DNA of 64,000 nucleotides from Candidatus Dormiibacterota bacterium (GTDB lineage Bacteria > Chloroflexota > Dormibacteria > Aeolococcales > Bog-877). Shown here piece after piece: positions 3,091-49,729 of the stretch. The notes under the pieces are model-generated. The model was given only the letters and a program-made list of their open reading frames with translations, was not told the origin of the DNA and made no database searches. The position numbers and the translations under genes are program-made. Within the stretch, counting starts at the first letter, position 1. Each line of letters starts with the position of its first letter. The stretch covers positions 375,211 through 439,210 of the forward strand of contig JBAPNX010000024.1 of NCBI GenBank assembly GCA_049279335.1, given 5' to 3'.

Positions 3091-3576
3091 TTGGAAGCCA
3101 GCGGCGCCCAGGGCGGTGCGGAGCTCGTCGACGCTCGGACCAGAACCAGAATGCGCCTCTTGGCCGCCTCTGCGGTCGCCTGGGCGGTGGCGGACCTCCT
3201 GCTCCTCTTGACCCAGGGGTTCCCCTCCGGGTGGCAGCTGCAGGTCACGTTCCTGTGCATGGCTCTGGTCCCCGCCGCGGCATTGATTCTGGCGCTCAGG
3301 GGGCGGTCGCCGGAGACGTTGGTGGTGGCGCTCACAGCCCTGGGATCTTGGACTTCCATCTTGGGGGTGCTGGGGCTGGTCACCATCGTGGGCCTTCCCC
3401 TGATCCTGGTCGCTGCCTTCGCCTACCTGCTCACCTACAACTACGCGGACGGCATGCAGGGGCGCCCCGATGGCGGCTGGGCCGTGCGCGCCGGCCTGAT
3501 CACTGGAGGCATAGGCCTTGCGGTGGGGCTGATCGGGCTGGTGATCACCATCCTCAGTGCCGTGGGCGCGGGCTGA
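3091..3576 (+). CDS. Hypothetical integral membrane protein (4 predicted TM helices)
   Basis: Long hydrophobic segments (LLAASAVAWAVADLLLLL..., LVTIVGLPLILVAAFAYLL..., GLIGLVITILSAVGAG). No recognisable domain. The start could be internal (MRLL...). Confidence 0.35.
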   Translation: MEASGAQGGAELVDARTRTRMRLLAASAVAWAVADLLLLLTQGFPSGWQLQVTFLCMALVPAAALILALRGRSPETLVVALTALGSWTSILGVLGLVTIVGLPLILVAAFAYLLTYNYADGMQGRPDGGWAVRAGLITGGIGLAVGLIGLVITILSAVGAG

Positions 3577-5627: not shown

Positions 5628-8393
5628 ATGGCAGCGACCGCGGCGCGGACGAAGCCAGCGGCGGCGTGCAGGGTCGGGCCGAAGTACGTGTACGACTTCG
5701 AAGAGGGCAACGCCGGCATGCGGGCCCTGCTCGGGGGCAAGGGTGCCGGAGTTGCCGAGATGACCAACGCCGGGCTGCCGGTGCCGCCCGGATTCACCAT
5801 CACGACTGAGGCCTGCAATGCCTACATGCAGGCCGCCAACAAGTTCCCCGCCGGGCTGATGGACGAGGTGAAACAGCACCTCAGCAAGTTGGAGCAGAGA
5901 ACCGGCAAGCGCCTGGGTGACCCCGATGAGCCGCTGTTGGTCTCGGTCCGCTCTGGGGCCGCCCAATCGATGCCGGGAATGATGGACACGGTGCTCAACC
6001 TGGGGCTCAACCAGCGCAGCCTGGAGGGCTTGGCCAAGAAGACCGGTGATCGCCGCTTCGCCCTCGACGCCTATCGCCGTTTCATCCAGCTCTTCGGCCG
6101 CATTGTCAAGGGGGTTGAAGGCGAGCTCTTCGAGCATGAGCTCGAGGCGGCCAAGGCGGCCGCCAAGGTGAGCTCAGACGCCGAGCTGTCGGCCGCAGCC
6201 CTGACCAACCTGGCTGAGAAATTCCGCGAGATCTATCGTAGCCAGACCAAAGAGCCATTTCCCGAGGACCCCTGGGAGCAGCTGACCATGGCCATCGCGG
6301 CCGTCTTCTCCTCCTGGAATGGGCGCCGCGCCGTCGCCTACCGCGAGTACAACCACATCCCCCACAACCTCGGGACCGCAGTGAATGTTCAGGCCATGGT
6401 GTTCGGCAACATGGGCAACGACTCCGGCACCGGAGTCGCCTTCACCCGTGATCCCGCCACCGGCGCGCGTCGCCTCTTCGGCGAGTACCTGCTCAACGCC
6501 CAGGGCGAGGACGTGGTGGCCGGGATCCGGACTCCCCAGCCGATCGAGACACTACGCAAGTCCCTGCCCAAGGTCTATCGGAGTTTCGCGGACATCGCCT
6601 CCAAGCTGGAGGCTCACTACCGCGACGTCCAGGACATGGAGTTCACCATCGAGCAGGGCAAGCTCTACATGCTCCAGACCCGGGGCGCCAAGCGCACCGC
6701 TGCGGCCGCGGTCAAGATCGCCATCGACATGCTCAGCGAGGGGATCATCACCAAGGAGGAGGCCCTGACCCGGGTCGAACCGGAGCAGGTCGATCACCTG
6801 CTCCACCGAGCCATCGACCCCCACGCCAAGGTCAAGGTCCTGGCCACCGGTCTGGCGGCCTCTCCGGGAGCCGCGACCGGTGCCGCCGTCTTTGATGCCG
6901 ATCGCGCCGAGGCCGCCGCCAAGCGGGGTGAGAAGGTGATCCTGGTGCGGATCGAGACCAACCCCGACGACGTCCACGGCATGATCGCCGCCGAGGGCGT
7001 CCTCACCTCTCGGGGTGGCCGGACCTCCCACGCTGCCGTGGTCGCTCGGGGCATGGGCAAGCCCTGCGTCGCTGGCGCCGAGGACGTCAAGGTGGATCTC
7101 GCCCGCCAGGAGTTCGTCGCGGGCGGGGTCACGGTCAAAGAGGGCGACGTCTTCACCCTCGACGGCTCCGACGGGCGGGTCATCGAGGGCGTGGTGGCGA
7201 CCGTCGAGCCGGTGGTCTCCGGGGACCTGGAGCAGCTGCTGTCGCTGGCCGACTCGGTGCGCCGGCTGCGGGTCTTCGCCAATGCCGACAACCCCCCCGA
7301 CGCAGAACGAGCCCGCGGTTTTGGGGCTGAGGGAATCGGCCTCTGCCGGACCGAGCACATGTTCATGGAGCAGGAGCGCCTCCCTCACGTTCAGGAGATG
7401 ATCCTGGCGGCTGATGCCGAGGCCCGGCGTCAGGCGCTGGCCAAGCTGCTGCCCTTCCAGCGCGAGGATTTCATCGGAATCCTGGCGGCGATGCGGGGGC
7501 TGCCGGTGATCATCCGGCTGATCGACCCCCCACTCCACGAGTTCTTGCCCAACCACGACGACCTTCTGGTGCAGGTGACGCGTCTGCGGGCGCTCAAGAA
7601 ATCGCCCAAGAAACTGGCCCGGGCCGAGCGCATGCTGGCTGCGGTCGAGGAGCTTCGGGAGCAGAACCCAATGCTGGGCCTGAGGGGCTGTCGACTGGGC
7701 CTGCTGTTCCCCGAGATCATCGAGATGCAGGTCAGGGCAATCGCCGAAGCCGCCTCTGAGCTGCGCCGCCGCCGGATCAAGGCGACGCCCGAGATCATGG
7801 TGCCCCTGGTGGGCCATGTCGAGGAACTCCGGCGCTCGCGCGCGATCATCGAGTCCACCTTGAAGGAGGTGGCCAAGGAACAGGGGGTCCGGCTGGACAT
7901 CAAGATCGGGACCATGATCGAGGTGCCCCGGGCAGCCCTCACCGCGCGCCAGGTGGCGGAGGCCGCCGAGTTCTTCTCCTTCGGCACCAACGACCTGACC
8001 CAGATGACCTACGGGGTCTCGCGCGATGACGCCGAGGGCAAGTTCCTCAACCGCTACGTCAGCGAGGGGATCCTGCCGGCCAACCCCTTCGAGCACCTGG
8101 ACCCTGACGGGGTGGGCAGGCTGATGGAGCTGGCCACCACCGAGGGCCGGGCCACCAAGCCGTCGCTGGAAGTCGGCATCTGCGGTGAGCACGGTGGCGA
8201 TGCCCAGTCGATCGCCATCTGTGAACGCCTCGGTCTCGACTACGTTTCCTGCTCCCCGTTCCGGGTTCCGGCGGCGCGGCTGGCCGCGGCTCAGGCTCGG
8301 CTGCAGTCGCGGATCGAGAGCGGCAAGGGGGTGGCGCGCCGATCGGGCCTAGGTCCCTCCCGCCGAGCACGGGGAGCCCGTGCCGCCGGCTAG
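5628..8393 (+). CDS. ppdK: Pyruvate, phosphate dikinase
   Basis: N-terminus VYDFEEGNAGMRALLGGKGAGVAEMTNAGLPVPPGFTITTEAC is the PPDK signature. Central phospho-His domain (GGRTSHAAVVARGMGKPCV) and C-terminal PEP-utilising TIM barrel. RBS GGGAGG about 10 nt upstream of ATG 5628. Short basic C-terminal extension relative to typical PPDKs. Confidence 0.9.
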   Translation: MAATAARTKPAAACRVGPKYVYDFEEGNAGMRALLGGKGAGVAEMTNAGLPVPPGFTITTEACNAYMQAANKFPAGLMDEVKQHLSKLEQRTGKRLGDPDEPLLVSVRSGAAQSMPGMMDTVLNLGLNQRSLEGLAKKTGDRRFALDAYRRFIQLFGRIVKGVEGELFEHELEAAKAAAKVSSDAELSAAALTNLAEKFREIYRSQTKEPFPEDPWEQLTMAIAAVFSSWNGRRAVAYREYNHIPHNLGTAVNVQAMVFGNMGNDSGTGVAFTRDPATGARRLFGEYLLNAQGEDVVAGIRTPQPIETLRKSLPKVYRSFADIASKLEAHYRDVQDMEFTIEQGKLYMLQTRGAKRTAAAAVKIAIDMLSEGIITKEEALTRVEPEQVDHLLHRAIDPHAKVKVLATGLAASPGAATGAAVFDADRAEAAAKRGEKVILVRIETNPDDVHGMIAAEGVLTSRGGRTSHAAVVARGMGKPCVAGAEDVKVDLARQEFVAGGVTVKEGDVFTLDGSDGRVIEGVVATVEPVVSGDLEQLLSLADSVRRLRVFANADNPPDAERARGFGAEGIGLCRTEHMFMEQERLPHVQEMILAADAEARRQALAKLLPFQREDFIGILAAMRGLPVIIRLIDPPLHEFLPNHDDLLVQVTRLRALKKSPKKLARAERMLAAVEELREQNPMLGLRGCRLGLLFPEIIEMQVRAIAEAASELRRRRIKATPEIMVPLVGHVEELRRSRAIIESTLKEVAKEQGVRLDIKIGTMIEVPRAALTARQVAEAAEFFSFGTNDLTQMTYGVSRDDAEGKFLNRYVSEGILPANPFEHLDPDGVGRLMELATTEGRATKPSLEVGICGEHGGDAQSIAICERLGLDYVSCSPFRVPAARLAAAQARLQSRIESGKGVARRSGLGPSRRARGARAAG

Positions 8394-14820: not shown

Positions 14821-17800
14821 ACCAGCGCCAGGCCTTCCTCGCCCTGGCCGAGGCGACTCTGACCCCAGCCCAGTTCCAGGTGGTGCAAGAACTGGGCCGA
14901 GGGCCGGTCAAGGTGGTGGCTGGGGCGGGCAGCGGCAAGACCACCACCATGGCCTATCTGTACGCCGCCGCCGTGGTCAGCGAGATCCCGGTGGGACGGA
15001 TCATGGCGGTCACCTTCACCGATCGGGCCGCCGTGGAGCTGCGGGCGAAGATCCTTGATGCCCTGGCTGCGGCTCGGCTGGTCCCAGCAGGAGCCGGACC
15101 CGATCCCCTCGAGGGAGCCTGGATCGGCACCTTCCATCAGCTGATCCGGCGGATGCTGGCGGAGCACGCCTACCTAGCCGGCCTGCCTCGGGATCTGGAA
15201 CTCGTCGACGAGGTGGTGGCGGGGATGGTGATGGAGGAGGCGCTGGACTCGGTGCGCCAGCAGGCGGCTACGTCCAGTTGGATGCAGCAGCTGCCACCTC
15301 AGCCCGACCCCCGCACCGTTCTTGGGCTCCTTGGCGGAGCCCGCGCCGCGGTGGAGCGACTCCGCTCCACCCAGCTCGAGGCAGACCAGTGCGAGCAGGA
15401 GTCCCTAGCCGCCTACGAATGGTTCGCCGCCAGTGGCGACTCTGCAGTGGAGATCGCCTGGCACCGAGCTGGGCTTGAACTGACAACCACCGTCTGGGCG
15501 GAGTACGAAGGTCGGCTCGCAGAACGTCAGACGCTCGACTTCGACGGGCTCCTTCGCCAAGGATTGCGAGCCCTGAGGAGCTCACCCGCCCTGCTCAGCT
15601 GGTGCCGTTCCACCTTCGAGCTGGTGATCGTCGACGAGTATCAGGACACCAGTGCCCTCCAGGAGTCAATGCTCCTGGAGCTCACTGGGCCGGCTCAGCG
15701 CAGCCTCTTCATGGTGGGCGACGCCCGGCAGTCGATCTATGCCTTTCGGGACGCCAAGCCCGGGATCATGACCTACGCGGCCGGCCGACCCTTCGGCCTG
15801 TTCCGCAACCACCGCTCGCGAAAGCCGATATTGGCTGCGGCCGATTTCGTAATCCGGGGCGATCCTCAGTTCGCAGACGACGATCCCATGGAAGCGGCCC
15901 GCGAGGGCGATTCCCCGCTCCCGGTCTGGGTCGCCGAGGTCGACCACCCCTCCAAGGAGGCAGAGGCGATCGCCGACGCGCTCCAGCAACTGCACCGGGA
16001 CGGGATCAATTATCCCGACGGCAGCCACCAGGACCTTCGCTGGTGTGACATGGCGGTACTCGCCTACACCCTCGGCCGGCTCGGTCTGTCGCTCGAGGAG
16101 TCGCTGAGGCTGCGAGGTATCCCCTTTCAGACCGTGAGCGGGGGGCTGTTGGCTCGGCCTGAGGTCAAGGATGTGCTGGCCTTCCTCAGGCTGGCGGCAG
16201 ACGACCGCGACGACCTTGCCTGCTTGCGCGTGCTGCAGTCACCGGTGGGGCGGATCCCGGACCGGGCCTTGCTTTCCCTGCGGCCCCGCCGGGGCGAGCG
16301 GGGTGCCTCGCTGGCCGAGCGGGCGCGTCGACACCTGGAGGAAGGCGGCGCGGGATGGGAGAGGTCGTGGACGGATCGTGCCCGGCGCATCCTGGCGCTG
16401 ATCGAGAAGCTCCGCGCCGCCGGCCGAACCTCTCCCGCTAGTCAGGTGCTGGCCCTGGCTCTGGCAGAGAGCGGTCTCCTGCGGCTGCAGCGAGCTCGAG
16501 TCCGGGCAGCGGACCCTCTGGGGCGCCGGGCCCTGGATGCCCTCTCAGAGCTGCAGCGGGTGGTTTGGGCCGCGGAGTCCAGCAGCCGCTGGCTCGGCTT
16601 GGGCGAACTGCTGGCCCGACTGGATGCCATGCGGGAAGACGCCACGACTGCCGAGCCGACGCCCCAGACCGACGAGGACCTGGTGACTATCAGCACCATC
16701 CACCGGGCCAAGGGCCTGGAGTGGCCCGTGGTGGTCCTGGCTGACTGCCGGCCCTACCAAGCGAGAAACCCTGGCTCGGTCATCTGGGACCGGCAGGCCA
16801 AGGCGGTCATCTGCACGCGAGTCGCCGGAGTCAAAACCTTAGCCTTCAAGCGCTGGTCTGAGAGTCCGGCCAAGAGGATCGACCTCGAAGAGCGTCGGCG
16901 CCTGATCTATGTGGCGATGACCAGGGCACGCGACCTGCTCTTGGTGACCACCAGTCGCAGCGGCACTCAGGGTGAGTTTGTCGAACTGGCCGCGGCGGCG
17001 GCGGGGCCGGCCAATTGGGCCAGCGAGTGGCCCGATTTCGCCGCCGAGGTGAGGCTGCCGTGGGCGGCGGCTGCGGGCGCCACCGGGGGCGTCACACAAA
17101 CCGGCGCTGCCGATGCGCAGCGCACCGTTTCAATGGCTCGGCTAAGGCAACGCTGGCTAGAGATAGAGCAGCTGCAAGCTACTGCCGGAACCGGCGTCTT
17201 CCGGCCAAAGCAGCTCAGTTTCACTGCAATGGAGACTCTTAACCGCTGCCCCCGGCAGTACTGGTATCGCTATCTGGCCCAGTATCCGATCGACTCAGCC
17301 GACCCAGGCTCGCCCAGGGGCCTCGTTGATGACGAATGGGGGGGCGAATCCGAGGGGATCGGCAGCGAGGCGGCTCGGGAGTTGGGCATTGCCGTGCACC
17401 AGGTCCTGGAGCGACTGCATGCCAGCCAACCCCTACGAGCCCCGACTCCCGTGGAGGCCGAAGTGGCGCTGGATGCGATGGCGGACAGCCTCAGTCTCCA
17501 GCAGCGGGACCTGGCGGAGGACATGGTCGGTCGCTACATCGCTGGGCGGGCTGCGGGGCTGCCAACGGTAGCCACCGAATTCAGCTTCAGCTGGAGAGAC
17601 TGGGCCGGACCCGGCTGTCCCACCCTGATCGGTGTCATCGACCGAGTCGCGCAGCTCCCGTCGGGCCAGCTCCTGATCATCGACTACAAGACCAACGTCA
17701 GCCTCGCGCCTGGGGAGCTGGCCGACTACTCGCGGCAGCTCCAGCTTTACGCGGCGGCGGTCACCGCCGGGGTGATGGGGACTGCAGTGCGGCCGCCGGC

Positions 17801-19709: not shown

Positions 19710-19856
19710 AGATGTAGATCCTCCCTTGGGACGAACTGAGACGGTCAATGCGACGCACGAATACTAAGGAAAACGTGGGAGGTTGTGCAGGTTTCGTAGC
19801 TGCACAGTGGCTGCTTCCCGGCCTTTTCCCGAGCCTGAGCCCGGGATTTGCCTTGA

Positions 19857-19870
19857 CGAACATACGTTCG
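19857..19870. promoter_or_regulatory. LexA (SOS) box, Cheo/actinobacterial type CGAAC-N4-GTTCG, upstream of imuA'
   Basis: cGAACatacGTTCg is a perfect palindromic match to the GAAC-N4-GTTC core. Flanked by TTGACG (19853-19858) and TATACT (19871-19876) promoter-like hexamers. Lies 77 nt upstream of the imuA' start. Confidence 0.6.
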
Positions 19871-19946
19871 TATACTTGGGGAGGGCCAGGCCGGCGACCT
19901 AACCCCGCCTCGGCCCCCTCCAGAGCTTCACACAGGTGGTTTTCCA

Positions 19947-20765
19947 GTGTCCTCAAAGCCGGTCGGGCGGGGGGAGGGGAGGCTCGCCAAACCACTGGTT
20001 GGAGCTCTGGAGTCGGCGCTGTCCGCGCTCAGCCACCGCTATGGCCCGGGGACGGTTCAGGCTGGAGTTCCACCACCGCTCCTGGGGCTGGCAACTGGGG
20101 TGAGCGTCCTGGACGCCCTCACCGGGTGCCAAGGTCTGCCCCGGGGCCGTATCAGCCGGTTGCTGGGCAAGCCTTCGTCTGGGGCGTTCGATCTCGGTTT
20201 AGCACTGGCGGCGGACGCGTCCCAGTCCGAATCGGTAGCCCTGGTCGACTTCACCCTGGAGGTGGATCCCGGCGCTGTCGAGGCCTATGGGGGTGAGCTG
20301 GACAACTTCTGGCTGGTCAGGCCAAGGAGCTCGGAGGAGGGTTGGGCGGCGGCCAGAGCCCTGGCCAAGGCGGGGGTGGGTCTCTGTCTGCTGGTGGCCG
20401 ATGACTGGTCCCGTCTCACCCCCGGCGCTGCCCCCGCGGCCCTGTTGGCTGCCCTCTCCGAAGGAGCTGGCGCGGGCTTGGTCCTGGGAGGAGGGCGGAT
20501 CCCGGCAGCACTCAAGGAGAGGATCTGCCTGGAGCTGGAGTGCTGGCGCCTTGATTGGTCTTGGGCCCATGGGGATATCTGTGGTCTCCGGACGAGGGTG
20601 CAGGTCAGCCGCAGCCATCTAGGTGCTCCTGGGGCCAGCTGCCAACTGCAGCTCAACTTTCCCCGGCCCTATCCCCTGCGGATCGGTCTCGAGGTGTCAG
20701 TGGCGGTAGGGGATGAGGAGTTGGCGGCGGAGCCACTGCCTCAGGCGGCTGGGAGTCAGCGGTGA
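19947..20765 (+). CDS. imuA: ImuA' - RecA-derived mutasome protein with degenerate Walker A
   Basis: 272 aa, alignable to the RecA core (ALESALSALSHRYGPG..., LDALTGCQGLPRGRISRLLGKPSSGAF..., ALVDFTLEVDP...), but the P-loop is GKPSSGAF rather than GPESSGKT. GTGA overlap with imuB. Confidence 0.65.
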   Translation: MSSKPVGRGEGRLAKPLVGALESALSALSHRYGPGTVQAGVPPPLLGLATGVSVLDALTGCQGLPRGRISRLLGKPSSGAFDLGLALAADASQSESVALVDFTLEVDPGAVEAYGGELDNFWLVRPRSSEEGWAAARALAKAGVGLCLLVADDWSRLTPGAAPAALLAALSEGAGAGLVLGGGRIPAALKERICLELECWRLDWSWAHGDICGLRTRVQVSRSHLGAPGASCQLQLNFPRPYPLRIGLEVSVAVGDEELAAEPLPQAAGSQR

Positions 20766-22003
20766 GCCAGAGCCGCAAGGCGCGCCTGGCCTGCCTCACC
20801 TTTCCCCACCTCGCGCTGGTGCTGGTTTGGCGTGCCCATCCCGAGCTCAAGCCAGAGCCGGTGTTGGTGGGGGGCCAGGGCCCTGGTGGCAGGCAGGTGG
20901 TGATGGCGGCTTCAGCGCCTGCCTGGGCCCGGGGGGTACGGCCCGGCCAGGATTGGCGTCGGGCGGAGGTCCTCTGCCCCTTGGGGGCTCGGTTCTCGGC
21001 CGACCCTGCAGCTTTGACCGAGCTGCGGCGGATCGCCCGGCTGGCGCTGGCCGCCTGCAGCCCGCTGGTGGAGTGGGGGGATGACGCCAGCGCCTACGTC
21101 GATCTGGCCGGAAGCGATCCCATCAGGCCTCAGGAGGGGTTGCGGGCCGCTCAATGTGGCCGTGCCATCGAGGAGGCTCTGGGAGTGACGCCCAGTGTCG
21201 GCGTGGGTCCCTCTCGCTTCTCCGCCTGGGTGGCGGCTCAGCTGGCAGCCCCGGGCCGGGTGCGCCTGGTCCCGGAGGGAGAGGCCGCGGAATTTCTGGC
21301 CAATTGGCCGGTAACCGAACTGCCGATCCCTCCCCAAGTCGCGGAGCGGCTGGTTCAGTTCGGTCTCCATACCTGTGGCGATTGCGCCTCGATCACCATG
21401 GTGGAGCTACAACGCCAGTTCGGTCCGGATGGGATTCTTCTCCACCGACTCTGCCGGGGACAGGACTCAGCCGGGGTCGATCCCTGGTGGGCGGCACTCC
21501 CCTGTGGGGTGCGCCGGGTCCTGGCGGGGGGAGTCGACGACTCCGAGTCGCTTCGCTTCGGTGCCGCCGAGCTGGCCAGAGGCTTGGCCCAGGAGCTGTC
21601 CCGCCAGGGACAGGCGGCGGGACGGATACGGCTGCTCCTGCGCGGCGAGGACGAGACCAGGCATCCGGCTCAAGCGGACCGGCAACTCTGGTGGGGTGAG
21701 GTGGCGCCCCCCGCTCCCATGGCCACCGCCGATGAGCTGATGGGGCCGCTGCTCAGCCTTTTCAGCAAAGCTCGTCTCCTAGCCCCAGTGACGGTGGTGG
21801 AGCTGGAGGCCTTGGACCTGGTTGCTCCCCCGGTGAACCAGATCGGACTCTGGCAGGGGCGGGCGGCTGACCGAGAGGTGATCAAGCGGGCGGTGGACCG
21901 ACTCCACGACCGATTCGGCACCGGTCTGGTCTGGCGGGTGGAGGTACGTCCAGGGCACCCTGGGGACGTACCCGAGGAGCGGCTGGTCTGGAACTCCCGT
22001 TGA
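20762..22003 (+). CDS. imuB: ImuB - catalytically inactive Y-family polymerase-like mutasome protein
   Basis: N-terminus LACLTFPHLALV lacks the catalytic Asp/Glu of Y-family polymerases but keeps the fold motif LGVTPSVGVGPSRFSAWVAAQLA (compare G.T.S.GIA.NK.LAK). Lies between imuA' and dnaE2. 413 aa, which is shorter than the 527-aa M. tuberculosis ImuB. Confidence 0.7.
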   Translation: MSQSRKARLACLTFPHLALVLVWRAHPELKPEPVLVGGQGPGGRQVVMAASAPAWARGVRPGQDWRRAEVLCPLGARFSADPAALTELRRIARLALAACSPLVEWGDDASAYVDLAGSDPIRPQEGLRAAQCGRAIEEALGVTPSVGVGPSRFSAWVAAQLAAPGRVRLVPEGEAAEFLANWPVTELPIPPQVAERLVQFGLHTCGDCASITMVELQRQFGPDGILLHRLCRGQDSAGVDPWWAALPCGVRRVLAGGVDDSESLRFGAAELARGLAQELSRQGQAAGRIRLLLRGEDETRHPAQADRQLWWGEVAPPAPMATADELMGPLLSLFSKARLLAPVTVVELEALDLVAPPVNQIGLWQGRAADREVIKRAVDRLHDRFGTGLVWRVEVRPGHPGDVPEERLVWNSR

Positions 22004-22248: not shown

Positions 22249-22346
22249 GACCGAACGTCTTCTGCTAGCGTCACTACATGCCCGACCGCCCGGCCACATC
22301 GACCTCGCCTCCGCCTTCGAACGCCCCACCCGGCGGGCGGCCGCCC

Positions 22347-24278
22347 ATGAACTACCGCTCGATGCGCAACTGGCTGCCGCTGATCATCATCCTGGTCCTC
22401 AACGTCCTGATCGTGAACGTCTTCCTGGCTCCATCCGCCCCCAAGACCATCACCATCCCCTACAGCACCTTCGTCAAAGACGTCGGCGGGAACGACGTCA
22501 GCAGCATCACCACCAGCTCGGGAACGATCAACGGCACCTTTCGGCATCTGACCGGGACCACCGCCACCTCCAAGACCAAGGCCAGGTATTTCACCACCCA
22601 GGTGCCCAGCTTCGCCGGGGGCGGCCTGGAGACCCTGCTCCAGAAGCACAACGTGACCATCAACGCCGAGAGCACCCTCACCCCCTTCTGGGAGGAGCTG
22701 CTGCTCAGCTTTGGTCCCACCTTGCTGATCGTCTTCGGCTTCATCTATTTGATGCGCCGGGTCGCTGCCTCGTCCAGTGGTGGCCTCTTCAGCATGGGGC
22801 GGAGCCAGGCCCGCCTCTACGATGCGGAGCGACCGGCCACCACCTTCGCCGATGTCGCGGGGATCGAGGAGGCAAAGGAGGAACTCGAGGAAATCGTGGA
22901 TTTCCTGCGCCAACCGGCCAAGTACCAACGCCTCGGTGGCACCGTGCCCAAGGGAGTGCTGCTGGTGGGGCTGCCCGGCACCGGAAAGACCCTTCTAGCC
23001 CGGGCGGTGGCGGGCGAGGCCAAGGTGCCCTTCTTCAGCCTCTCGGCCTCGGAGTTCATCGAGATGATCGTGGGAGTGGGTGCGTCGAGGGTCCGGGACC
23101 TCTTCACCAAGGCCCGGGCCGCGGCCCCGGCCATCATCTTCATCGACGAGCTCGACGCCATCGGGCGCAGCCGGGGAGCCGGGCCGAGCTTCGGGGGCCA
23201 CGATGAGCGCGAGCAGACGCTGAATCAGATCCTCACCGAGATGGACGGATTCGACTCCCGCGAGGGCGTGATCGTTCTCGCTGCCACTAACCGCGCCGAC
23301 GTGCTGGATCCGGCGCTGCTCCGGCCCGGGCGCTTCGACCGCCGGGTCATGGTCCAGCCCCCGGACCGGGTGGGCCGGGCCGCGATCCTCAAGATCCACA
23401 CCCGGGGAGTGCCCCTGGCCGATGACGTTGATCTCAACATCGTGGCCTCCCAGACCCCAGGACTGGTGGGCGCCGAGCTCCGCAACCTGGTTAACGAGGC
23501 GGCGCTCCTGGCCGCACGCCGCGACCGCAAGGCGGTGGCCATGGCCGACTTTACCGACGCCTTTGAGAAGGTACTCCTGGGGGCGGCCAGACGAATCGTT
23601 CTCTCCGAGGAGGACCGACGCCGCACCGCCTGCCACGAGAGCGGTCATGCCCTGCTGGGGCTGCTCATCCCCGAGGCCGACCCGGTGCGACGGGTTTCGA
23701 TCGTGCCTCGAGGGCGGGCCCTAGGGATTACGGTCCAGTCCCCGGTCGACGACCGCCAGAACTACCCCGAGACCTACCTCCGGGCCCGCATCGTCGGGGC
23801 GCTCGGGGGCCGGGCCGCTGAGAAGCTGGTCTACGACGTGGTCACCACCGGCGCCGAGAGCGACCTCCAGCAGGTGACGATCATCGCCCGGCAGATGGTG
23901 GTCCACTGGGGGATGAGCCCATTGATTGGTCCGCTCAACCTGACCGAGGAGCCAGACCAGCAGGCCCTGGTGATGCCGCAGCGGGCTTACAGCGAGGTGA
24001 CCGCCCAGGTGATCGATTCCGAGGTAAAGCGGATCGTGGAGGAGTGCTTCGCCGAGGCCTGTGATCTGCTGAGCAAGAATCGGGACAAGCTGGAGGCGTT
24101 GACCCAGGCCCTGCTGCGCGACGAGTCCCTCGACGAGGATGAGATCCTCAAGGTCACCGGCCTTTCCCCCAAGCCCAGCGCGGCACCGCCGCCTGCGATC
24201 TCCGGCAATGGGGTGGGCGGGGCTCCTCCCGAGCCGGACCCCGCCCACGAGCACCCTGCTCCCGAGCCGGTCCGCTAG
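22347..24278 (+). CDS. ftsH: ATP-dependent zinc metalloprotease FtsH
   Basis: N-terminal TM helices. AAA module with [17 protein letters not shown], and [26 protein letters not shown]41 HEXXH site [13 protein letters not shown] at 22347; the upstream part of the listed ORF is Pro-rich and non-native. Confidence 0.9.
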
Positions 24279-25015
24279 AACCAGATCCGCATCGCGATCC
24301 CCAGCTCGCGGTCGGTCTCGTCAGCATGGCTAGGGACCCAGCTGGCCTTGCCGGCGACGATTCGACGGGCGGTCCAGAGGCAGGCGTAGGCGTCCAGCGC
24401 GTCCTCGCTTGAGGGGCGGCGGGGATTGACCCCAGCCACCTCGGCGAACTCGGCCAGTAGCAGCCGCCGCCGGTGGGACCGCCCCTCGACGGTGTGCTTG
24501 GACCCGAGCGCGGCCCCGCCGAGCTCGCGAAAGGCAAGTTCCGGGTGACCCTCGTAGAACTTCTGAGCGTCTCCGCGTACCAGCGCCTCGTCGACCTCCC
24601 GGACCTTGGCCAGGATCCCGAAGGCCTGGCGCGACAAGCCCTTGCCCTCGATCTGGCGCCGGATGTCCTGGGCCTGCTGGTAGCTGGTTGCGCTCAGCAT
24701 CGGGCGCAGAGGGGCTGGGAACACGCTGGTGAGGCGGGGCCACCCCAGGAGTCGGCGGGCCTCCAGGTCGCAGGCTCGGGCGCCTCGCGTGGGCAGCCCG
24801 ATGGGGATGTCGAGGACGGCGGCTAGCACCGAGTGTCGGTTGCTGACGGCGGCCAGGAGGGGGGTGTCCCAGTGCTCCAGGGAGGTGGTCTGGTCGGCGT
24901 ACTGGAGGGCCACCATCCAGCCACCGGGGCAACCATCGGCGCCTATCAGCCTAAGGGCGGAGGGCACTGGCAAATCGTAGACCTGAGGGGAGTTGGAGGC
25001 CACTAAAGCGAACAT
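24275..25015 (-). CDS. DUF429 family protein (predicted RNase H-like nuclease)
   Basis: LRLIGADGCPGGWMVAL matches the DUF429 GIDGC.GGW signature. 3' end overlaps the ftsH stop (CTAG shared). The 5' end is uncertain: candidate starts at 25015 (ATG), 24973 (TTG) and 24967 (GTG). The longest one overlaps the dnaE2 SOS box. Confidence 0.55.
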   Translation of the reverse strand: MFALVASNSPQVYDLPVPSALRLIGADGCPGGWMVALQYADQTTSLEHWDTPLLAAVSNRHSVLAAVLDIPIGLPTRGARACDLEARRLLGWPRLTSVFPAPLRPMLSATSYQQAQDIRRQIEGKGLSRQAFGILAKVREVDEALVRGDAQKFYEGHPELAFRELGGAALGSKHTVEGRSHRRRLLLAEFAEVAGVNPRRPSSEDALDAYACLWTARRIVAGKASWVPSHADETDRELGIAMRIWF

Positions 25016-25022
25016 CAGTTCG
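25009..25022. promoter_or_regulatory. LexA (SOS) box upstream of dnaE2, with adjacent -10-like TATCAT
   Basis: gCGAACatcaGTTCGt is a perfect CGAAC-N4-GTTCG palindrome. TATCAT sits at 25023-25028, only 6 nt before the dnaE2 ATG (25035), suggesting a leaderless or very short-leader transcript. Confidence 0.6.
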
Positions 25023-25034
25023 TATCATGTGGCG

Positions 25035-28000
25035 ATGCCTCAGCTCAGCTTCTCGGAACTCTGGGCCCGTTCCTACTTCTCCTTTTTGGAAGGTGCCAGC
25101 GCCCCCGAGGCGATGGTCGCCCGGGCCGCCGAACTGGGGATGGCCGCCTTGGGCCTGGTGGATCGAGGCGGCCTATATGGAGCGGTACGGTTGGTCCAGG
25201 CTGCCGAGAGGGTCGGGCTGGCTGCCATGGTGGGGGCGGAACTGGACCTGGAGGGTGGGGGCCGACTGGTCCTGCTGGCCACCGACCGCCCCTCGTACCA
25301 ACAGCTCTGCCGAGCGGTGAGCCGGGCCCAGTTGGCGGGGGACAAGGGGGCCCACCGCCTCCACCTGACGGGACTGCAAGCAGTCCTCGCCGACGCTGCG
25401 GGCAGGGTAGGCGGTGAGCGCGATGCCGTCCCCTTGCCAGCGCTGACCCGGCGACGGAGCCGGCAGGACGGAGCGGAGGTCGCCGCTGACAGCCAGGTGG
25501 CGCCGGAGCAGGTCAGCCGCTGCACGGTGATGGCGGGAGGACCCCACAGCCCCATCAGCCTGGCCCTTCTCCGTGGTGACAGGGAGGCGGCCGATCGGGC
25601 TGCCCTGGCCCTCCGCGAAGCCTTCCCCAGAGGCCTGGTCTACCTCTCCATGCACCACCATCTCCATCCCGGAGACAGCTGGCTGGCGGCGGAGACCGCC
25701 GCCTGTGCGCTGCGGACTGGGGTGGGTCTCTTGGTTTCAGGCGCTCCCCGTTATGCCACAGCTCCCGAGGCGTCCCTCTTGGACGTGCTCACCGCCATTC
25801 GCCACAACTCCACCCTGGATGAGGCAGCCGAGCGAGGGCTGCTACTGCCCAACCACCAGTACCAGATGCGAGATGGGGACCAGCTGAGGGAGCTGCTCCC
25901 ATATCCGGCTGCCTTCCAGGCCACCGCCGATCTGGCTGCCCGAGCCGAGCTCAAGCTCGACTTCCGCCACAGCCGCTTCCCCGGCTTCAGGGCGCCTTCG
26001 GGACTGAGCCCCGATCAGTACTTGGAGCAGCTCTGCCGCCGAGGGCTGCCGAGCAGATACCCGACTCCCAGCGCTGAAGTTGAGGCCCGGCTGGTCCATG
26101 AGCTCCGGGTCATCGCCAAGTGCAAACTGGCCGAGTTCTTTCTCATCGTCTGGGAGCTGATGGACTTCGCCTCCCGCGAGGGGATACCGGCCCAGGGCCG
26201 GGGTTCCGCCGCCGACAGCCTGGTGGCCTACCTGCTGGGCATAACCCGGGTCGACCCCATTGCTCACCGCCTGCTCTTTGAGCGCTTTCTCCACGAGGAG
26301 ATGCAGGGCACTCCCGACATCGACATCGACATCTCGACTGCCCACCGGGAGCAGTTGCTCCGCCACGTCTACGACACCTACGGCCAGGATCGCACCGGGA
26401 TGGTGTGCACCGTCATCACCTTCCAGCTCCGGATGGCGGTCCGCCAGGTAGGGGCCGCCTTCGGGCTGCCCCAGCCGGTGGTGGACAAGCTCAGCCGCTC
26501 GGTGGACCGCTGGTACGGGAAGGGCGAGCAGGCCATGGTCGCCCAGCTGCTGGAGTCGGCTGGCGAACTCCCGGAACAGGTCCTGGTCTCACCGTCCTGG
26601 CGCCAGTTCGCCAGCATGGTGGAGGCGGTGGTGGGAGTGCCGCGCCATCTCTCCATCCATGTCGGCGGCATGCTGGTCACCGGAGAGCCGCTCTGGGATA
26701 TCGCCCCCTTGGAGCGAGCCACCATGCCCGGCCGGGTGGTGGTCCAGTTCGACAAGGACGACGTCGAGGACCTGGGCCTGATCAAGATCGACCTGCTTGG
26801 GCTGCGCACCCTCTCGGTGGTGGCCGAGACCCTTGACGAGCTGGAGCAGGCCACCGGTGAGCGCCCCGACCTGGAGGCACTGGACCTAGCCGACCCAGAG
26901 GTCTATGCCATGTGCGCCAGGGCTGACACCATCGGGGTCTTTCAGATCGAGTCGCGGGCCCAGCAGCAGACCCTGCCCCGCACCAACCCCAAGGAGTTCA
27001 ACGACCTGGTGGTCGAGGTGGCGATCATCCGGCCCGGCCCCATCCAGGGCAAGGCGGTCCACCCCTACATGCGCCGCCGCCAGGGTCGTGAAGAGGTGAG
27101 CTACCTCCATCCGCTGCTGGAACCGATCCTCCACGACACCCTGGGGGTGATCCTCTTCCAGGAGCAGATCCTGGAGATCGCCATGCAGCTGGCGGGATTC
27201 AGCGCCGGGGAGGCCGATCGCTTCCGCCGGGCCATGAACCGCCATCGCTCCCGGGTGGAGATGGGCTCCCTGGAGCAGGGATTTCTGGACGGCTGCTCTC
27301 GCCACCAGGTGTCGAGGGAGGTGGCGGCCGAGCTGTTCGAAGCAGTGAGGGGCTTCGCTGAGTTCGGTTTCTGCCGCAGCCATGCCGCCGCCTTCGCCCG
27401 CACCGCCTACGAGACCGCCTGGCTGCGGCTCTACCATCCCGCCGCCTATCTGGTGGGGCTGCTCAACCACCAGCCCATGGGTTTCTATCACCCGTCGGTG
27501 CTGGTCGAGGACGCCAAGCGGCGCGGAGTCAAGGTGCTCTCCGTGGACGTCAACCTCAGCCGGAGCCGCTGTCATCTGGAGGAGGGATCCAGGACTCCCC
27601 GCCAATTCGGCGTCCGACTCGGCTTCAACTACGTCAGAGAGCTGGGCGGGAACCTGGGTGAAGAGCTGGATCGAGAACGTGAGCTGGGCCCGTACCGATC
27701 ACCGGAGGACTTCTGGCGCCGTACCGAACTCTCCCGACCGGCGCTGGACTCCCTGGTGATGGTGGGTGCCCTGGACAGCTTTGGTGAGTCCCGCCGCAAA
27801 CTGCTCTGGCGGCTCAAGACGGTAGAGGAGGAGCTGGCGGGGAGCCGCGGACCGCGATCCACCCTCATCCCCGGACAGGCTGAACCGGTGAGTGCCAGGC
27901 AGCAGCAGTTGCTGGCGCTGCCGGCGGAACCACCGCGGCTGGCGGATCTGACCGCGAGGGAGCGGGCCGCGGCCGACTACCGAATCATGGGTCTGACCAC

Positions 28001-28403
28001 CGGAGAGCACCTGGTCTCCTTCCTGCGGCCGCAGCTGGCCGAACTGGGGGCGATTCCTCTGGCTGAGGTGAGAGAGGCGGGCAATGGCAGAAGGGTGCGG
28101 GCCGCCGGGCTGGTGATAACCCGCCAAGCGCCCTACTCCGCCCACGGCATGCGCTTCTTCACCGTGGTTGACGAGACGGCGCACCTGGACCTGGTTCTCC
28201 GCCCCCAGGTCTACCGGGCCCACCGGTCCTGGGCCAACCATGAGCCGGTGATCTGCGCCGAGGGGGTGTTGCAGGTGGCGGACGGGGCCCTCAGCCTCCT
28301 GGTCGAGAAATTGCTGCCACTACCCCGGCCGGTGCCCCAGGCGGCTGACCCTAGCCCGACCGACTCGTTGTTCCCCGCCCCGTCGGCTCACGACTACCAC
28401 TGA
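25035..28403 (+). CDS. dnaE2: Error-prone DNA polymerase III alpha subunit DnaE2 (ImuC)
   Basis: N-terminal PHP domain (FSFLEGASAPEAMVARAAELGMAALGLVDRGGLYG), polIIIalpha core and C-terminal OB fold. 1123 aa from ATG 25035, typical of DnaE2 rather than the replicative DnaE1 (about 1180 aa). Confidence 0.85.
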   Translation: MPQLSFSELWARSYFSFLEGASAPEAMVARAAELGMAALGLVDRGGLYGAVRLVQAAERVGLAAMVGAELDLEGGGRLVLLATDRPSYQQLCRAVSRAQLAGDKGAHRLHLTGLQAVLADAAGRVGGERDAVPLPALTRRRSRQDGAEVAADSQVAPEQVSRCTVMAGGPHSPISLALLRGDREAADRAALALREAFPRGLVYLSMHHHLHPGDSWLAAETAACALRTGVGLLVSGAPRYATAPEASLLDVLTAIRHNSTLDEAAERGLLLPNHQYQMRDGDQLRELLPYPAAFQATADLAARAELKLDFRHSRFPGFRAPSGLSPDQYLEQLCRRGLPSRYPTPSAEVEARLVHELRVIAKCKLAEFFLIVWELMDFASREGIPAQGRGSAADSLVAYLLGITRVDPIAHRLLFERFLHEEMQGTPDIDIDISTAHREQLLRHVYDTYGQDRTGMVCTVITFQLRMAVRQVGAAFGLPQPVVDKLSRSVDRWYGKGEQAMVAQLLESAGELPEQVLVSPSWRQFASMVEAVVGVPRHLSIHVGGMLVTGEPLWDIAPLERATMPGRVVVQFDKDDVEDLGLIKIDLLGLRTLSVVAETLDELEQATGERPDLEALDLADPEVYAMCARADTIGVFQIESRAQQQTLPRTNPKEFNDLVVEVAIIRPGPIQGKAVHPYMRRRQGREEVSYLHPLLEPILHDTLGVILFQEQILEIAMQLAGFSAGEADRFRRAMNRHRSRVEMGSLEQGFLDGCSRHQVSREVAAELFEAVRGFAEFGFCRSHAAAFARTAYETAWLRLYHPAAYLVGLLNHQPMGFYHPSVLVEDAKRRGVKVLSVDVNLSRSRCHLEEGSRTPRQFGVRLGFNYVRELGGNLGEELDRERELGPYRSPEDFWRRTELSRPALDSLVMVGALDSFGESRRKLLWRLKTVEEELAGSRGPRSTLIPGQAEPVSARQQQLLALPAEPPRLADLTARERAAADYRIMGLTTGEHLVSFLRPQLAELGAIPLAEVREAGNGRRVRAAGLVITRQAPYSAHGMRFFTVVDETAHLDLVLRPQVYRAHRSWANHEPVICAEGVLQVADGALSLLVEKLLPLPRPVPQAADPSPTDSLFPAPSAHDYH

Positions 28404-29961
28404 CCTGGGCTTGGGCCGAGACCGAGGCCACCGCCACTGGCCTGCCGCCGGGGTCGGCAGGGCCCAGTCCCAGCCGGGGGCGCAAACGCTCCAACTGGCG
28501 CATGGTCGCCTCCAGATCCGCAGAACTGAAGGCCGAGCGAGTCCGCTTGTGCAGCGCCACGGTGAAGCCGGCGAAGCCGGGCAGGTCTAGGGGCAGCGCC
28601 ATCGCCGACTCCAGCTCGACATTGGTCCTGGCTTGGGGTCGGCTCGAGGGGGGCTCGACCCAGAGCACGGGAACCCCACCTTCCCGGGCGCGCTCGGCCA
28701 GGGATGTGAAGAGCTGACCAGCACCGGCAGCGGGCTCGCCGGCGGCCGCGACCTCCTGACCCTTGGGGTCGAGCATCACGGTCAGCTGGGCACGACCGGC
28801 CCGGCCCAGCTGGGCCAGGAAGTGATCGACGCCGATCGGCTGCAGTGAGGGGCGACGGTGCCGGCGGGCCAGTTGCCAGTTGAGGGTGGCGTTGACGGCC
28901 ATCCCCAACACCGCTGCCAGCAGACCGTCCAGCACTAGCGGCAGGGAGGTGCCCACCAGTCCCAGGAAGACGACCAGCTGAGCCCCGCCTGCGGTCAGGG
29001 CAGATGAGACGTAGCGTCGCATCAGGGGATAGCGCTCGCGGCGGAGATCCGCGAATGTGAGTCTCAGGTTCCAGCCGAAGTTCCAGAGCCCGGAGATGAC
29101 GAAGGCAACCGCCCAAGCCGCCAGAGCCGGCCAGCCCAGGACCACTCCGCCCAGCTCGATCAGGACCAGGAAAAGGCCCAGGCCGCTGATCCCCACTGCC
29201 GCGAACTTCCAGATCCGGGCACTTCCCGGGACATCCCAAACCAGTGACCAGACGTGGCGGAGGAAGAGCAGCCCCTGGGCGGTGCTCGCCTTGCTCTCGC
29301 CGGTCGCCCGGGCCTGGAACTGGAGGGGCACGTCCACCACCACCGGGTGGGGAGAGCAGACCAGGAGCTCGAGCAGGATCTTGAAGCCAACCGGGCGGAA
29401 CTCGAGCCCGCGCAGGAGCGAGGAACGGCTGAGGAAGAACCCAGCCAGGGGATCCGTGCTGGTCCGGGCCTCGACGAAAACCGTCCGCACCAAGACGCTG
29501 GCCGCTCGCGAGACGAAGTGCCGGAAGCCGCCGGCCAATCCCTCCCGGCTGCCACCCGGCAGGTAGCGACTGGCGACTACCAGATCGGCCCCGGCCCGCT
29601 CGGCGTCGAGCATGGCCGGGATGGTCTCGGGGGGATGCTGCAGGTCCGCGTCCATGACACAAACCACCCGCCCCCGGGCCTCTCTCAGGCCTAGGACCAC
29701 CGCCGTGCTGAGTCCACCGGTCCGGGCCTCGGCTTGGCGGTGGATCACCCGGATGCGCCGGTCGCGGCTGGACTGGCTGGCCAGCAGCTGGGCGGTCTGG
29801 TCGTCGCTGTCGTCGATGAAGACCAGCTCGAATTCGACGCCGTCGAGGGCGGCTGTCAGCCTCGCCAGCAGGGGCTCGATGTTACCGGCCTCGTTGCGCG
29901 TCGGCAGGACGACCGACAGTTCAGGCGATGCCGCCCCGGGCTCGGCGCGCAGGTCGGCCAT
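28351..29961 (-). CDS. GT2 glycosyltransferase (DPM1/polyprenol-phosphate sugar synthase-like) fused to a GtrA-like membrane domain and a roughly 170-aa C-terminal extension of unknown function
   Basis: N-terminus LSVVLPTRNEAGNIEPLL...FIDDSDDQT...VMDADLQHPPE (GT2 DxD/QxxRW-like). Mid region 4 TM helices as in GtrA. C-terminal soluble region (HFLAQLGRAGRAQLTVMLDPKGQEV...) has no recognisable motif. Its 3' end overlaps the dnaE2 3' end by 53 nt (convergent). Confidence 0.7.
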   Translation of the reverse strand: MADLRAEPGAASPELSVVLPTRNEAGNIEPLLARLTAALDGVEFELVFIDDSDDQTAQLLASQSSRDRRIRVIHRQAEARTGGLSTAVVLGLREARGRVVCVMDADLQHPPETIPAMLDAERAGADLVVASRYLPGGSREGLAGGFRHFVSRAASVLVRTVFVEARTSTDPLAGFFLSRSSLLRGLEFRPVGFKILLELLVCSPHPVVVDVPLQFQARATGESKASTAQGLLFLRHVWSLVWDVPGSARIWKFAAVGISGLGLFLVLIELGGVVLGWPALAAWAVAFVISGLWNFGWNLRLTFADLRRERYPLMRRYVSSALTAGGAQLVVFLGLVGTSLPLVLDGLLAAVLGMAVNATLNWQLARRHRRPSLQPIGVDHFLAQLGRAGRAQLTVMLDPKGQEVAAAGEPAAGAGQLFTSLAERAREGGVPVLWVEPPSSRPQARTNVELESAMALPLDLPGFAGFTVALHKRTRSAFSSADLEATMRQLERLRPRLGLGPADPGGRPVAVASVSAQAQVSGSREPTGRGTTSRSG

Positions 29962-31745: not shown

Positions 31746-32933
31746 GTGGGCGCCGAGTCTAGAATCTGGCCAATGGGTTCGACGCCGGTCGGGCAGAGGC
31801 CTTCGTCCCAGCCGGCGAGCTCCCCGACGGTGAGTTTCGCCACCTACAACATTCTTTTGGGGGGCGGGGGGCGCTGGCCCGAAATCACCGAGCTGCTGCG
31901 CTCGGTCGATGCCGACGTGGTCGCGCTCCAGGAGGCAGATGACCGAGCCGCGGTCGCCCGGGCCGCGGACCAGCTCGGGTACCAGCTGATCTATGGCATC
32001 GCGCCAACCCCGGCGCAACAGGCGACGCCTCGGCACCAGGCGGTGCTCTCGCGCCTGCCGGTCGCGCGCTGGGTCAACCATCGCGATCCCACGGTGTTCC
32101 TGCGCAATTCACTGGAGGTCTGGCTGGAGACACCTCCCGGCAGCCAGATCAAACAGCTCTGTCTGCACACTGTTCACCTGACTGCGGCGTTCCAGCGCCG
32201 CGGGCGGGCAGAGCCAGACCGGGTCCGCGAGCTGGCGGCGGTCCAGGCCCACGCCGCTCAGCACCCCGAGGTTCCCCACCTGGTGGCCGGCGACTTCAAC
32301 TCGGTGGCTCCGGGTGACAGGATCCAGGCCACCGACTTCTTTGCCCAGATCAACCTCTGGCGCCGAACCGGAGTTCTCCAGGGGGCGGGAGCCATCGGGC
32401 CTATTCCCCCCGGCCTGTCGCGCCTCCGCTGGTGGCAGGACCCGGAGACAGCCGATGCCATCGTGGAGGAGTTGCCTGAGGCGGTGAGGAGCGGATTGCC
32501 CCGGCTGCCCTGGCTGGTCCATCCCCTTTTGGAGGTGCTGCCTCGGGGCGATACCACCGACGCGGTCCTGGGGGCGCTGTTGCCGCGGGCCGCGGTTCGG
32601 AGCATGCTCAGGGCGGGATACATCGATTGCCTGCGGGCTCTCCACCCCCGAGCCAGCGCCTTCACTTGTCCCACCTATCAACCAGCGGCTCGCATCGACT
32701 ACGTTTTCGTCACCAGGGGACTTGACCGGCGGCTGGTCCGCTGCGAGGTTGTGGGGGGGTCGGGCGACCTGGGGAAGCTGGCCCGGCGGGCCAGCGATCA
32801 TTTCCCGGTGATAGCGGAATTCGGTCTCGCCTCGACTCGGTCCCAATCTCTGGGACCGGCCCGGGCCTCTCGTACCGGGAGCCCCGGTGGGGCTGGCACG
32901 TCGCCATCGCGGGACGACGCGCCAGCCGGGTAG
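31746..32933 (+). CDS. Endonuclease/exonuclease/phosphatase (EEP) family protein
   Basis: SFATYNILLGG...DVVALQEAD...GDFNS...SDHFPV are the EEP catalytic motifs. Alternative ATG start at 31773. Confidence 0.75.
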   Translation: MGAESRIWPMGSTPVGQRPSSQPASSPTVSFATYNILLGGGGRWPEITELLRSVDADVVALQEADDRAAVARAADQLGYQLIYGIAPTPAQQATPRHQAVLSRLPVARWVNHRDPTVFLRNSLEVWLETPPGSQIKQLCLHTVHLTAAFQRRGRAEPDRVRELAAVQAHAAQHPEVPHLVAGDFNSVAPGDRIQATDFFAQINLWRRTGVLQGAGAIGPIPPGLSRLRWWQDPETADAIVEELPEAVRSGLPRLPWLVHPLLEVLPRGDTTDAVLGALLPRAAVRSMLRAGYIDCLRALHPRASAFTCPTYQPAARIDYVFVTRGLDRRLVRCEVVGGSGDLGKLARRASDHFPVIAEFGLASTRSQSLGPARASRTGSPGGAGTSPSRDDAPAG

Positions 32934-49326: not shown

Positions 49327-49398
49327 GGCCGACGTAGCTCAGTGGTAGAGCAGCGGTTTCGTAAACCGCTTGTCCGGGGTTCAAATCCCCGCGTCGGC
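49327..49398 (+). tRNA. tRNA-Thr (anticodon CGU)
   Basis: Cloverleaf: acceptor GCCGACG/CGTCGGC, D-arm GCTC-AGTGGTA-GAGC, anticodon arm GCGGT-TTCGTAA-ACCGC (anticodon CGT), T-arm CGGGG-TTCAAAT-CCCCG. CC encoded, A not encoded. Confidence 0.85.
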
Positions 49399-49729
49399 TC
49401 CGTTTTCATGTGCTAGTTCGGGTGACACGTCGCCAAAGGGCTTCGGCTGATGGGTCGCACAACTTCGGCTGAGGTGTCATCACTTCCTCAGCCTGGTGTT
49501 CCCGCTCGATCATTCAGACTTCGAATTCCTCGATTCTTAGCCGAGTGATGGCGGCGCTGGCGCGCCACCCGTCGCCTAACTTGCGCACCGTCTGACGCCG
49601 GACCTGTCGAAGTGGCCACCGGATCCCAAACACCGCGGCTAGTTACTGTCGGTACTGCCGCCACCCAGGCGGTTTCGCAGCTTGCGCGCCCAACATGATC
49701 AGTCGAGCCAGGAGGACCACTCATGTCCT

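Follow-up and report, generated by a model that had tools for sequence, protein, structure and literature searches.

A LexA-type SOS box adjoins a predicted leaderless dnaE2 promoter beside a divergent DUF429 gene in a Dormibacterota genome

We analyze the region between dnaE2, which encodes an error-prone DNA polymerase, and a divergent DUF429 gene in a 64,000-nucleotide stretch of DNA from a Candidatus Dormibacterota bacterium (contig JBAPNX010000024.1, positions 375,211 to 439,210; hereafter the window, in whose coordinates all positions are given). The two genes are separated by 67 bp, and the gap contains a LexA-type palindrome. The analysis gives a first sequence-level view of SOS control in the uncultured soil phylum Dormibacterota.

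The dnaE2–DUF429 locus

The plus strand of the gap reads ...CCACTAAAG CGAACATCAGTTCG TATCAT GTGGCG ATG CCT CAG... The following features are placed on it and on the flanking genes.

25009–25022, palindromic (no strand): LexA-type SOS box CGAACATCAGTTCG, a GAAC-N4-GTTC palindrome of the Gram-positive/Actinobacteria type, in the dnaE2 promoter spacer (−26 to −13).
25023–25028, plus strand: predicted dnaE2 −10 hexamer TATCAT, which adjoins the box directly and is constant in position in related loci.
25035–28403, plus strand: dnaE2 (imuC), error-prone polymerase coding sequence, assigned from its NF004225 match, domain content and conserved start geometry.
24275–24967, minus strand: DUF429 (PF04250), coding for a RuvC-like, RNase H-superfamily protein of 230 aa, with a probable GTG start at 24967.
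24974–24979, minus strand: predicted DUF429 −10 hexamer TACGAT, 6 nt upstream of GTG 24967, which predicts a leaderless mRNA.
24998–25003, minus strand: putative weak −35-like hexamer GTGGCC of DUF429, with an 18-nt spacer, overlapping the would-be dnaE2 −35 position.
24968–25015, minus strand: in-frame 16-codon extension of the DUF429 open reading frame (ORF), best read as untranslated promoter DNA.

The coordinates of the palindrome, of TATCAT and of the dnaE2 ATG agree with those of the original prediction, made from the sequence of the window. It also noted correctly that the first ATG of the DUF429 ORF, at 25015 (CAT on the plus strand, 25013–25015), lies inside the palindrome.

The reading frame from ATG 25035 encodes a protein of 1122 aa, which begins MPQLSFSELWARSYFSFLEGAS and carries PHP, pol III alpha, finger, HhH and OB domains. 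The protein scores 996.7 bits on NCBIfam NF004225 'error-prone DNA polymerase' (cut-off 939). Two ORFs at 19947–20765 and 20762–22003, with Pfam RecA-like and IMS matches, encode RecA-like ImuA' and Y-family ImuB. The score above cut-off, together with these genes 3–5 kb upstream, identifies the protein as DnaE2/ImuC. The longest DUF429 ORF spans 24275–25015 on the minus strand (246 codons) and matches Pfam DUF429 from residue 25 on (2e-47; 162 bits against a gathering cut-off of 23).

The comparison of intergenic regions covers 13 close loci, the deeper loci L013, L015, L020 and L022, and 10 related metagenome loci, which were found with the DnaE2 N-terminus and are assigned taxonomically by similarity only. 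The genome loci and the best DUF429 homologues belong to Candidatus Dormibacterota metagenome-assembled genomes (MAGs). An 11th metagenome locus (L091), with a DnaE2 identity of 32–36%, lacks the module of box and −10 hexamer.

Seventeen Dormibacterota genome loci (L001–L015, L020 and L022) show the gene order imuA'-imuB-ftsH-(DUF429 reversed)-dnaE2, contig permitting: L011 ends before ftsH and L014 before dnaE2. The linkage of dnaE2 to imuA'/imuB holds in 16 of the 17, the contig of L011 being too short. We also considered a general link of DUF429 to dnaE2 or to the SOS response. In flanks of up to 10 kb, 63 DUF429 loci from other phyla give no match to dnaE, imuB, imuA or ftsH, and the regions upstream of DUF429 in other phyla are not enriched in the box. 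Therefore, the DUF429–dnaE2 association is specific to this lineage and does not extend to the DUF429 family at large.

The LexA-type SOS box

The palindrome is supported as the LexA-type SOS box of the dnaE2 promoter, with LexA binding predicted. It matches CGAAC-N4-GTTCG exactly, a motif present in 2 copies in the 64 kb where 0.06 are expected; none of 100 shuffles gives 2. The second exact copy, at 19857–19870, adjoins the −10 hexamer (TATACT) upstream of imuA'-imuB, so that both copies lie in promoters of core SOS genes. In orthologous promoters the box is conserved, being retained as CGAACNNNNGTTCG in 17 related dnaE2 loci.

The established motif for LexA in Firmicutes and Actinobacteria is GAAC-N4-GTTC, variants of which occur in Chloroflexi and Cyanobacteria; across phyla, the core LexA regulon includes imuA-imuB-dnaE2 (PMC4951493). 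In Mycobacterium tuberculosis, LexA ChIP-seq gives peaks at dnaE2 and at Rv3395c of the imuA'-imuB operon (PMC3381160).

At up to one mismatch, the window holds 4 hits against about 2 expected. The near-matches CGAACCGGAGTTCT (32364–32377) and CGATCCTCAGTTCG (15860–15873) both fit chance. The first of them contains the third GAAC-N4-GTTC of the window, at 32365, which we rejected as an operator: it lies inside an apparently coding ORF (31746–32933), neither the flanking C/G nor a −10 hexamer is present, and we treat it as a chance occurrence.

The imuA'-imuB promoter shares the design of the dnaE2 promoter.

19848–19876, plus strand: predicted imuA'-imuB promoter, with TTGCCT (−35), a 17-nt spacer containing the SOS box CGAACATACGTTCG (19857–19870), and TATACT (−10).

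This layout is common to 13 related loci. At dnaE2 the box lies between −26 and −13 of the predicted start point, a usual site for repression, and its placement at imuA' is identical. The imuA'-imuB transcript, unlike that of dnaE2, would have a leader of 60–69 nt, with a GGTGG Shine-Dalgarno-like element before GTG 19947. By eye, the imuA' leader contains a conserved hairpin, for example GGTGGAGC-CTA-GCTCCACC in L007 and GGGGAGGGCCAGGC...GCCTCGGCCCCCTCC in the window; a quick run of RNAalifold on sequences aligned with MAFFT failed to predict it.

Deeper lineages carry variant sites beside the dnaE2 −10 hexamer, of the form (C/A)GTAC-N4-GTTTG or GGCAC-N4-GTTTG (L015, ~8040–8065; L020, ~4225–4250; L022, ~3235–3260; L088 and L089, ~2965–2995) or, in L086/87, AAAAC-N4-GTTCG. 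The GTTTG variants resemble the cyanobacterial RGTAC-N3-DGTWCB type and suggest a drift of LexA specificity within the phylum.

The dnaE2 promoter and its leaderless start

The order box, TANNNT, 6 nt, start codon is constant in about 22 related loci. The −10 hexamer is TATCAT, TATGAT, TATTAT, TATACT or TATCCT. About 20 loci have a gap of 6 nt between this hexamer and the start codon; L081 and L084/85 have one of 7 nt. The 6-mer that fills the gap varies (GTGGCG, GGCAAG, GGCGTG, TGCGGG, GACGTC, GGGTCG and others), and the start codon alternates between ATG and GTG. In the window, GTGGCG alone separates the −10 hexamer from the ATG, leaving no room for a Shine-Dalgarno sequence.

TATCAT has its first T 12 nt before the start codon. 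Leaderless genes have a published signature, a TANNNT whose first T lies ~12 nt upstream of the start (PMC3160421); such genes are also treated in PMC3898074, PMC4007540 and PMC12340547. The conserved phasing of −10 hexamer and start codon matches this signature while the 6-mer and the start codon vary, indicating that the dnaE2 mRNA is very probably leaderless, with a predicted transcription start at the A of ATG 25035. The very short or leaderless mRNA of the original prediction is thus supported by the geometry of the related loci.

Leaderless mRNAs seem common in this Dormibacterota genome. Among ORFs of the window, which were called crudely for this purpose, the gap from TANNNT to the start codon is 6 nt in 8 cases and 7 nt in 3, with 0–2 cases at every other gap from 0 to 15 nt. 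In total, 11 of 47 ORFs, about a quarter, show leaderless spacing, including ftsH. The leaderless reading of dnaE2 is well supported by these comparisons and is also ordinary for this organism. Examples of the leaderless type lie at 22266–22278, 28350–29961 (minus strand), 34568, 36535, 50344 (minus strand) and 50951 (minus strand); the ftsH start reads TAGCGT-CACTAC-ATG at 22278.

The DUF429 start codon and promoter

In an alignment of DUF429 orthologues, M or V occupies the column of window residue V17 (GTG 24967) wherever the sequence reaches it. Ten database proteins begin at this column, with M (P0013 with V), and residues upstream of it are not conserved. A TANNNT hexamer lies exactly 6 nt before the corresponding start codon in all 13 close loci (variants TACGAT, TAGGAT, TACGCT, TACCCT, TACTCT and TAATCT) and also in L082, L083 and L090. 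In the deeper clade, 6 nt separate CACAAT or GAGAAT from the GTG. The window reads TACGAT-TTGCCA-GTG with no Shine-Dalgarno sequence, the same leaderless pattern as at dnaE2. In L004, L006, L007, L008 and L009, a putative −35 hexamer, TTGGCA or TTGGCG, lies exactly 17 nt upstream of the DUF429 −10 hexamer and 5–6 nt from the box.

The DNA between box and promoter varies in length. Among relatives with a canonical box, the spacer from the box to the DUF429 −10 hexamer is 21, 22, 26, 27, 28, 29, 30 or 33 nt (29 nt in the window, 30 nt in L001, 28 nt in L081, 33 nt in L090). The ATG of the box is out of frame with DUF429 in L001, L002, L009, L010, L011, L012, L081, L082 and L090, and L007 has ACG in its place. 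In an AlphaFold2 model of the 230-aa protein (mean predicted confidence, pLDDT, 96), the first beta-strand begins at residue 5.

The M/V column, the invariant TANNNT, the frame-breaking length variation and the position of the first modeled strand together indicate that DUF429 probably starts at GTG 24967, from a promoter of its own, and that its mRNA is probably leaderless as well. The alternative starts GTG 25003 and TTG 24973 are not conserved in relatives. This result speaks against the original prediction, which had DUF429 starting inside the operator. That prediction had proposed N-terminal conservation as a check and had named a start at 24967 with an independent promoter as the outcome contrary to it; on comparative grounds, this outcome is what we find.

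A model of the two promoters

From the geometry, conservation and gene identities given above, we infer LexA binding, transcription start points and a regulatory outcome as follows. The gap probably holds two back-to-back leaderless promoters, of which LexA would block that of dnaE2, with DUF429 under its own promoter and weak or no LexA control.

At dnaE2, the −10 hexamer TATCAT, 6 nt before the ATG, would set the transcription start on the A of ATG 25035 or beside it. A LexA dimer bound at −26 to −13 would block RNA polymerase, since the operator adjoins the −10 hexamer. Upon DNA damage, RecA-stimulated cleavage of LexA would free both dnaE2 and, 5 kb upstream, imuA'-imuB from repression. 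DUF429 would be transcribed in the opposite direction from its own promoter (−10 TACGAT, 24974–24979; weak −35 GTGGCC) and translated from GTG 24967. The ATG within the operator would be a by-product of the half-site ATGTTC.

Several observations weigh against this model. A tblastn search with E. coli LexA finds no lexA in the window or in 80 genome loci, a result that is uninformative genome-wide. A simple sigma-70 scan of 24100–25300 finds no consensus promoter, an outcome explained by the weakness of the −35 elements. The ATG of the box is in frame and open in 7 of the 13 close loci, including the window, and may occasionally serve as a start. Finally, LexA may repress DUF429 in L010, L012, L082, L020 and L022, where repression is plausible because the box reaches or covers the DUF429 −35 position (spacer of 21–22 nt; 14 nt in L020 and L022).

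Alternative explanations

In the original prediction, a single LexA operator represses both genes, so that DUF429 is an SOS gene induced together with the polymerase. The part of this claim that concerns dnaE2 is supported by the overlap of the box with the dnaE2 core promoter; for DUF429 the balance tips the other way. Relative to the DUF429 start point, the box covers −42 to −55, outside the core promoter and 5–6 nt upstream of the −35-like hexamer. An operator that overlaps both core promoters (−35 to +1), as in a co-repressed pair, is found only in L020 and L022, with L010, L012 and L082 marginal; in the window the overlap is limited to dnaE2. The distance from the box to the DUF429 promoter is unconstrained (21–33 nt) and differs by 4 nt even between the window and L090, which share 92% DnaE2 identity.

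In addition, the box stays with dnaE2 where DUF429 has moved or is missing. Box, −10 hexamer, 6 nt and start codon remain at dnaE2 in L013, where DUF429 lies ~250 nt away, and in L015, where a GGDEF gene stands between; in L086/87, L088 and L089, the module is present at dnaE2 with no DUF429 within 3 kb upstream. Among 62 DUF429 loci from other phyla, the box (at most one mismatch) occurs once, against ~1.3 expected. The GGDEF (diguanylate cyclase-like) insertion, at 8600–9790 of L015, is seen in this lineage only; DUF429 there keeps CACAAT, 6 nt and GTG, with no box nearby.

On the other side, the junction with the box between the genes is kept in all 15 genome loci that span it (the window clade and the L020/L022 clade) and in 5 further metagenome lineages, and it persists despite gene insertions 3' of DUF429. 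A tiny gap holding two promoters, however, is a poor target for insertions, and this alone can account for the persistence. A LexA dimer at −42 to −55, 5–6 nt from the −35 hexamer, could also impede upstream contacts of the polymerase, and in L010, L012, L082, L020 and L022 the box extends to or over the −35 position of DUF429. The predicted start points are 68 bp apart, so that the footprints of the two polymerases must overlap; promoter competition is a further possibility. Taken together, a meaningful LexA repression of DUF429 in this organism is doubtful, and its co-induction with the polymerase from one operator is unlikely. The position of the operator upstream of the DUF429 core promoter points to a LexA control that would be at most weak or indirect.

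A second alternative denies TATCAT a promoter role: the dnaE2 mRNA would carry a leader and start further upstream, perhaps as read-through from imuA'-imuB-ftsH, and the palindrome would serve as a roadblock or bind another regulator. The genes imuA', imuB, ftsH and dnaE2 all lie on the plus strand, no terminator-like site is found from ftsH to dnaE2 (a simple scan of 24100–25300 gives no intrinsic terminator), and the stop codons of ftsH and DUF429 overlap. Moreover, the simple scan finds no consensus −35 at dnaE2, where the −35 position would be 25000–25005 (CCACTA). However, the exact 6–7 nt phasing of TANNNT in ~22 loci is hard to account for otherwise, imuA' is driven by the same module of box and −10 hexamer, and read-through transcripts would need to traverse 690 nt antisense to DUF429. 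We consider this explanation very improbable.

Translation of a 246-aa DUF429 protein from ATG 25015 within the operator, the start that gene callers set for several orthologues, has in its favor an open frame, the superiority of ATG to GTG as a start codon and the 'MF...' annotation of 5 database orthologues, but it is scarcely credible because the 16 extra residues are not conserved, roughly half of the related loci lack the ATG or have it out of frame, 'MF' is what the LexA half-site ATGTTC encodes, neither the Pfam domain nor the modeled fold requires the extension, and no suitably placed Shine-Dalgarno sequence or −10 hexamer precedes it.

The DUF429 protein

The AlphaFold2 model of the DUF429 protein has a RuvC-like fold. 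Across 60 sequences, residues D53, E139, H141, D189 and D192 (230-aa numbering) are invariant and D11 is at least 90% conserved; the conserved acidic residues sit in the motifs GxDG, DIPIG, EGHPE and C-terminal DxxDA. Majorek et al. place DUF429 in clade D of the RNase H-like superfamily, together with RuvC and YqgF, and find its genomic context conserved in close taxa alone (PMC3985635). The Pfam score above the gathering cut-off and the conserved acidic active-site residues place the window protein in this clade. Sequence searches of the PDB find no relatives, a Foldseek search of the PDB returns nothing significant, and NCBIfam gives no match for the protein.

The M. smegmatis protein MSMEG_5849 (MS_RHII-RSD), a DUF429–RelA/SpoT fusion, has a reported RNase HII activity (PMC4429107); the architecture is listed in PMC3985635. 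Given the affinity to clade D and RuvC and the mycobacterial RNase HII report, the DUF429 protein is likely a nuclease for branched DNA or RNA–DNA hybrids. A role in anti-phage defense was considered and rejected, as the protein has neither a PADLOC hit nor an NCBIfam match.

Any role of DUF429 in translesion synthesis is speculation, based on an adjacency that is limited to part of one phylum. One such scenario, in which the protein would cut junctions, flaps or RNA–DNA hybrids at stalled forks and be coupled to dnaE2 through the 67-bp region, by co-repression or promoter competition, is improbable. A nuclease co-regulated with an error-prone polymerase would be interesting if true; the evidence does not carry it.

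Comparison with known systems

Rather than a new kind of system, the locus is a clean new instance of regulatory designs already known, within a phylum so far unstudied. As in M. tuberculosis, dnaE2 and imuA'-imuB are separate transcription units with a GAAC-N4-GTTC box in each promoter. In Dormibacterota, the units differ in being separated by 5 kb that include ftsH and DUF429, the box adjoins the −10 hexamer in both promoters, and LexA binding is predicted. A Gram-positive-type LexA box fused to the −10 hexamer of both mutasome promoters thus characterizes SOS control in these Dormibacterota loci.

The predicted leaderless starts resemble those of Actinobacteria and Deinococcus-Thermus, where the first T of TANNNT lies 12 nt before ATG or GTG and the Shine-Dalgarno sequence is absent; the cases in the window are predicted from sequence. 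The literature library searched gave no paper on the SOS response in Dormibacterota and, as far as it shows, no earlier description of leaderless mRNAs in this phylum. The apparent leaderless habit matters for the calling of start codons in Dormibacterota MAGs, where several database DUF429 entries bear a false N-terminus (MF...) made by the operator.

The divergent E. coli genes uvrA and ssb share one LexA box. The window likewise has one SOS operator between divergent genes, but this operator overlaps the core promoter of dnaE2 only. The DUF429 protein belongs to the same Pfam family as MSMEG_5849, with which it is compared by family membership; it differs in being a single-domain protein lacking RelA/SpoT, and its activity is predicted. 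Compared with RuvC, MOC1, phage RuvC and Ydc2, the DUF429 protein shows 10–13% identity and is ~70–80 residues longer.

Neighboring genes and related loci

A scan of the whole window at Rfam gathering thresholds gives one tRNA (49328–49399) as the sole match, and no structured RNA in the DUF429–dnaE2 gap. The genes ftsH and DUF429 are convergent and end in one common CTAG (24275–24278), their stop codons overlapping. No terminator-like hairpin is seen between them, so that each transcript should extend antisense into the other gene. In relatives L003–L012, the ftsH–DUF429 junction holds an inserted MFS-type transporter gene, and in L020 a gene for a large surface protein.

The third-party annotation (TPA) MAGs that contain L006, L007 and L009 are titled Nanopelagicaceae, Acidiferrales and 'Micrarchaeaceae archaeon', yet each carries a Dormibacterota-type locus with 82–86% DnaE2 identity. 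By this measure, the taxonomic labels of these three MAGs look wrong.

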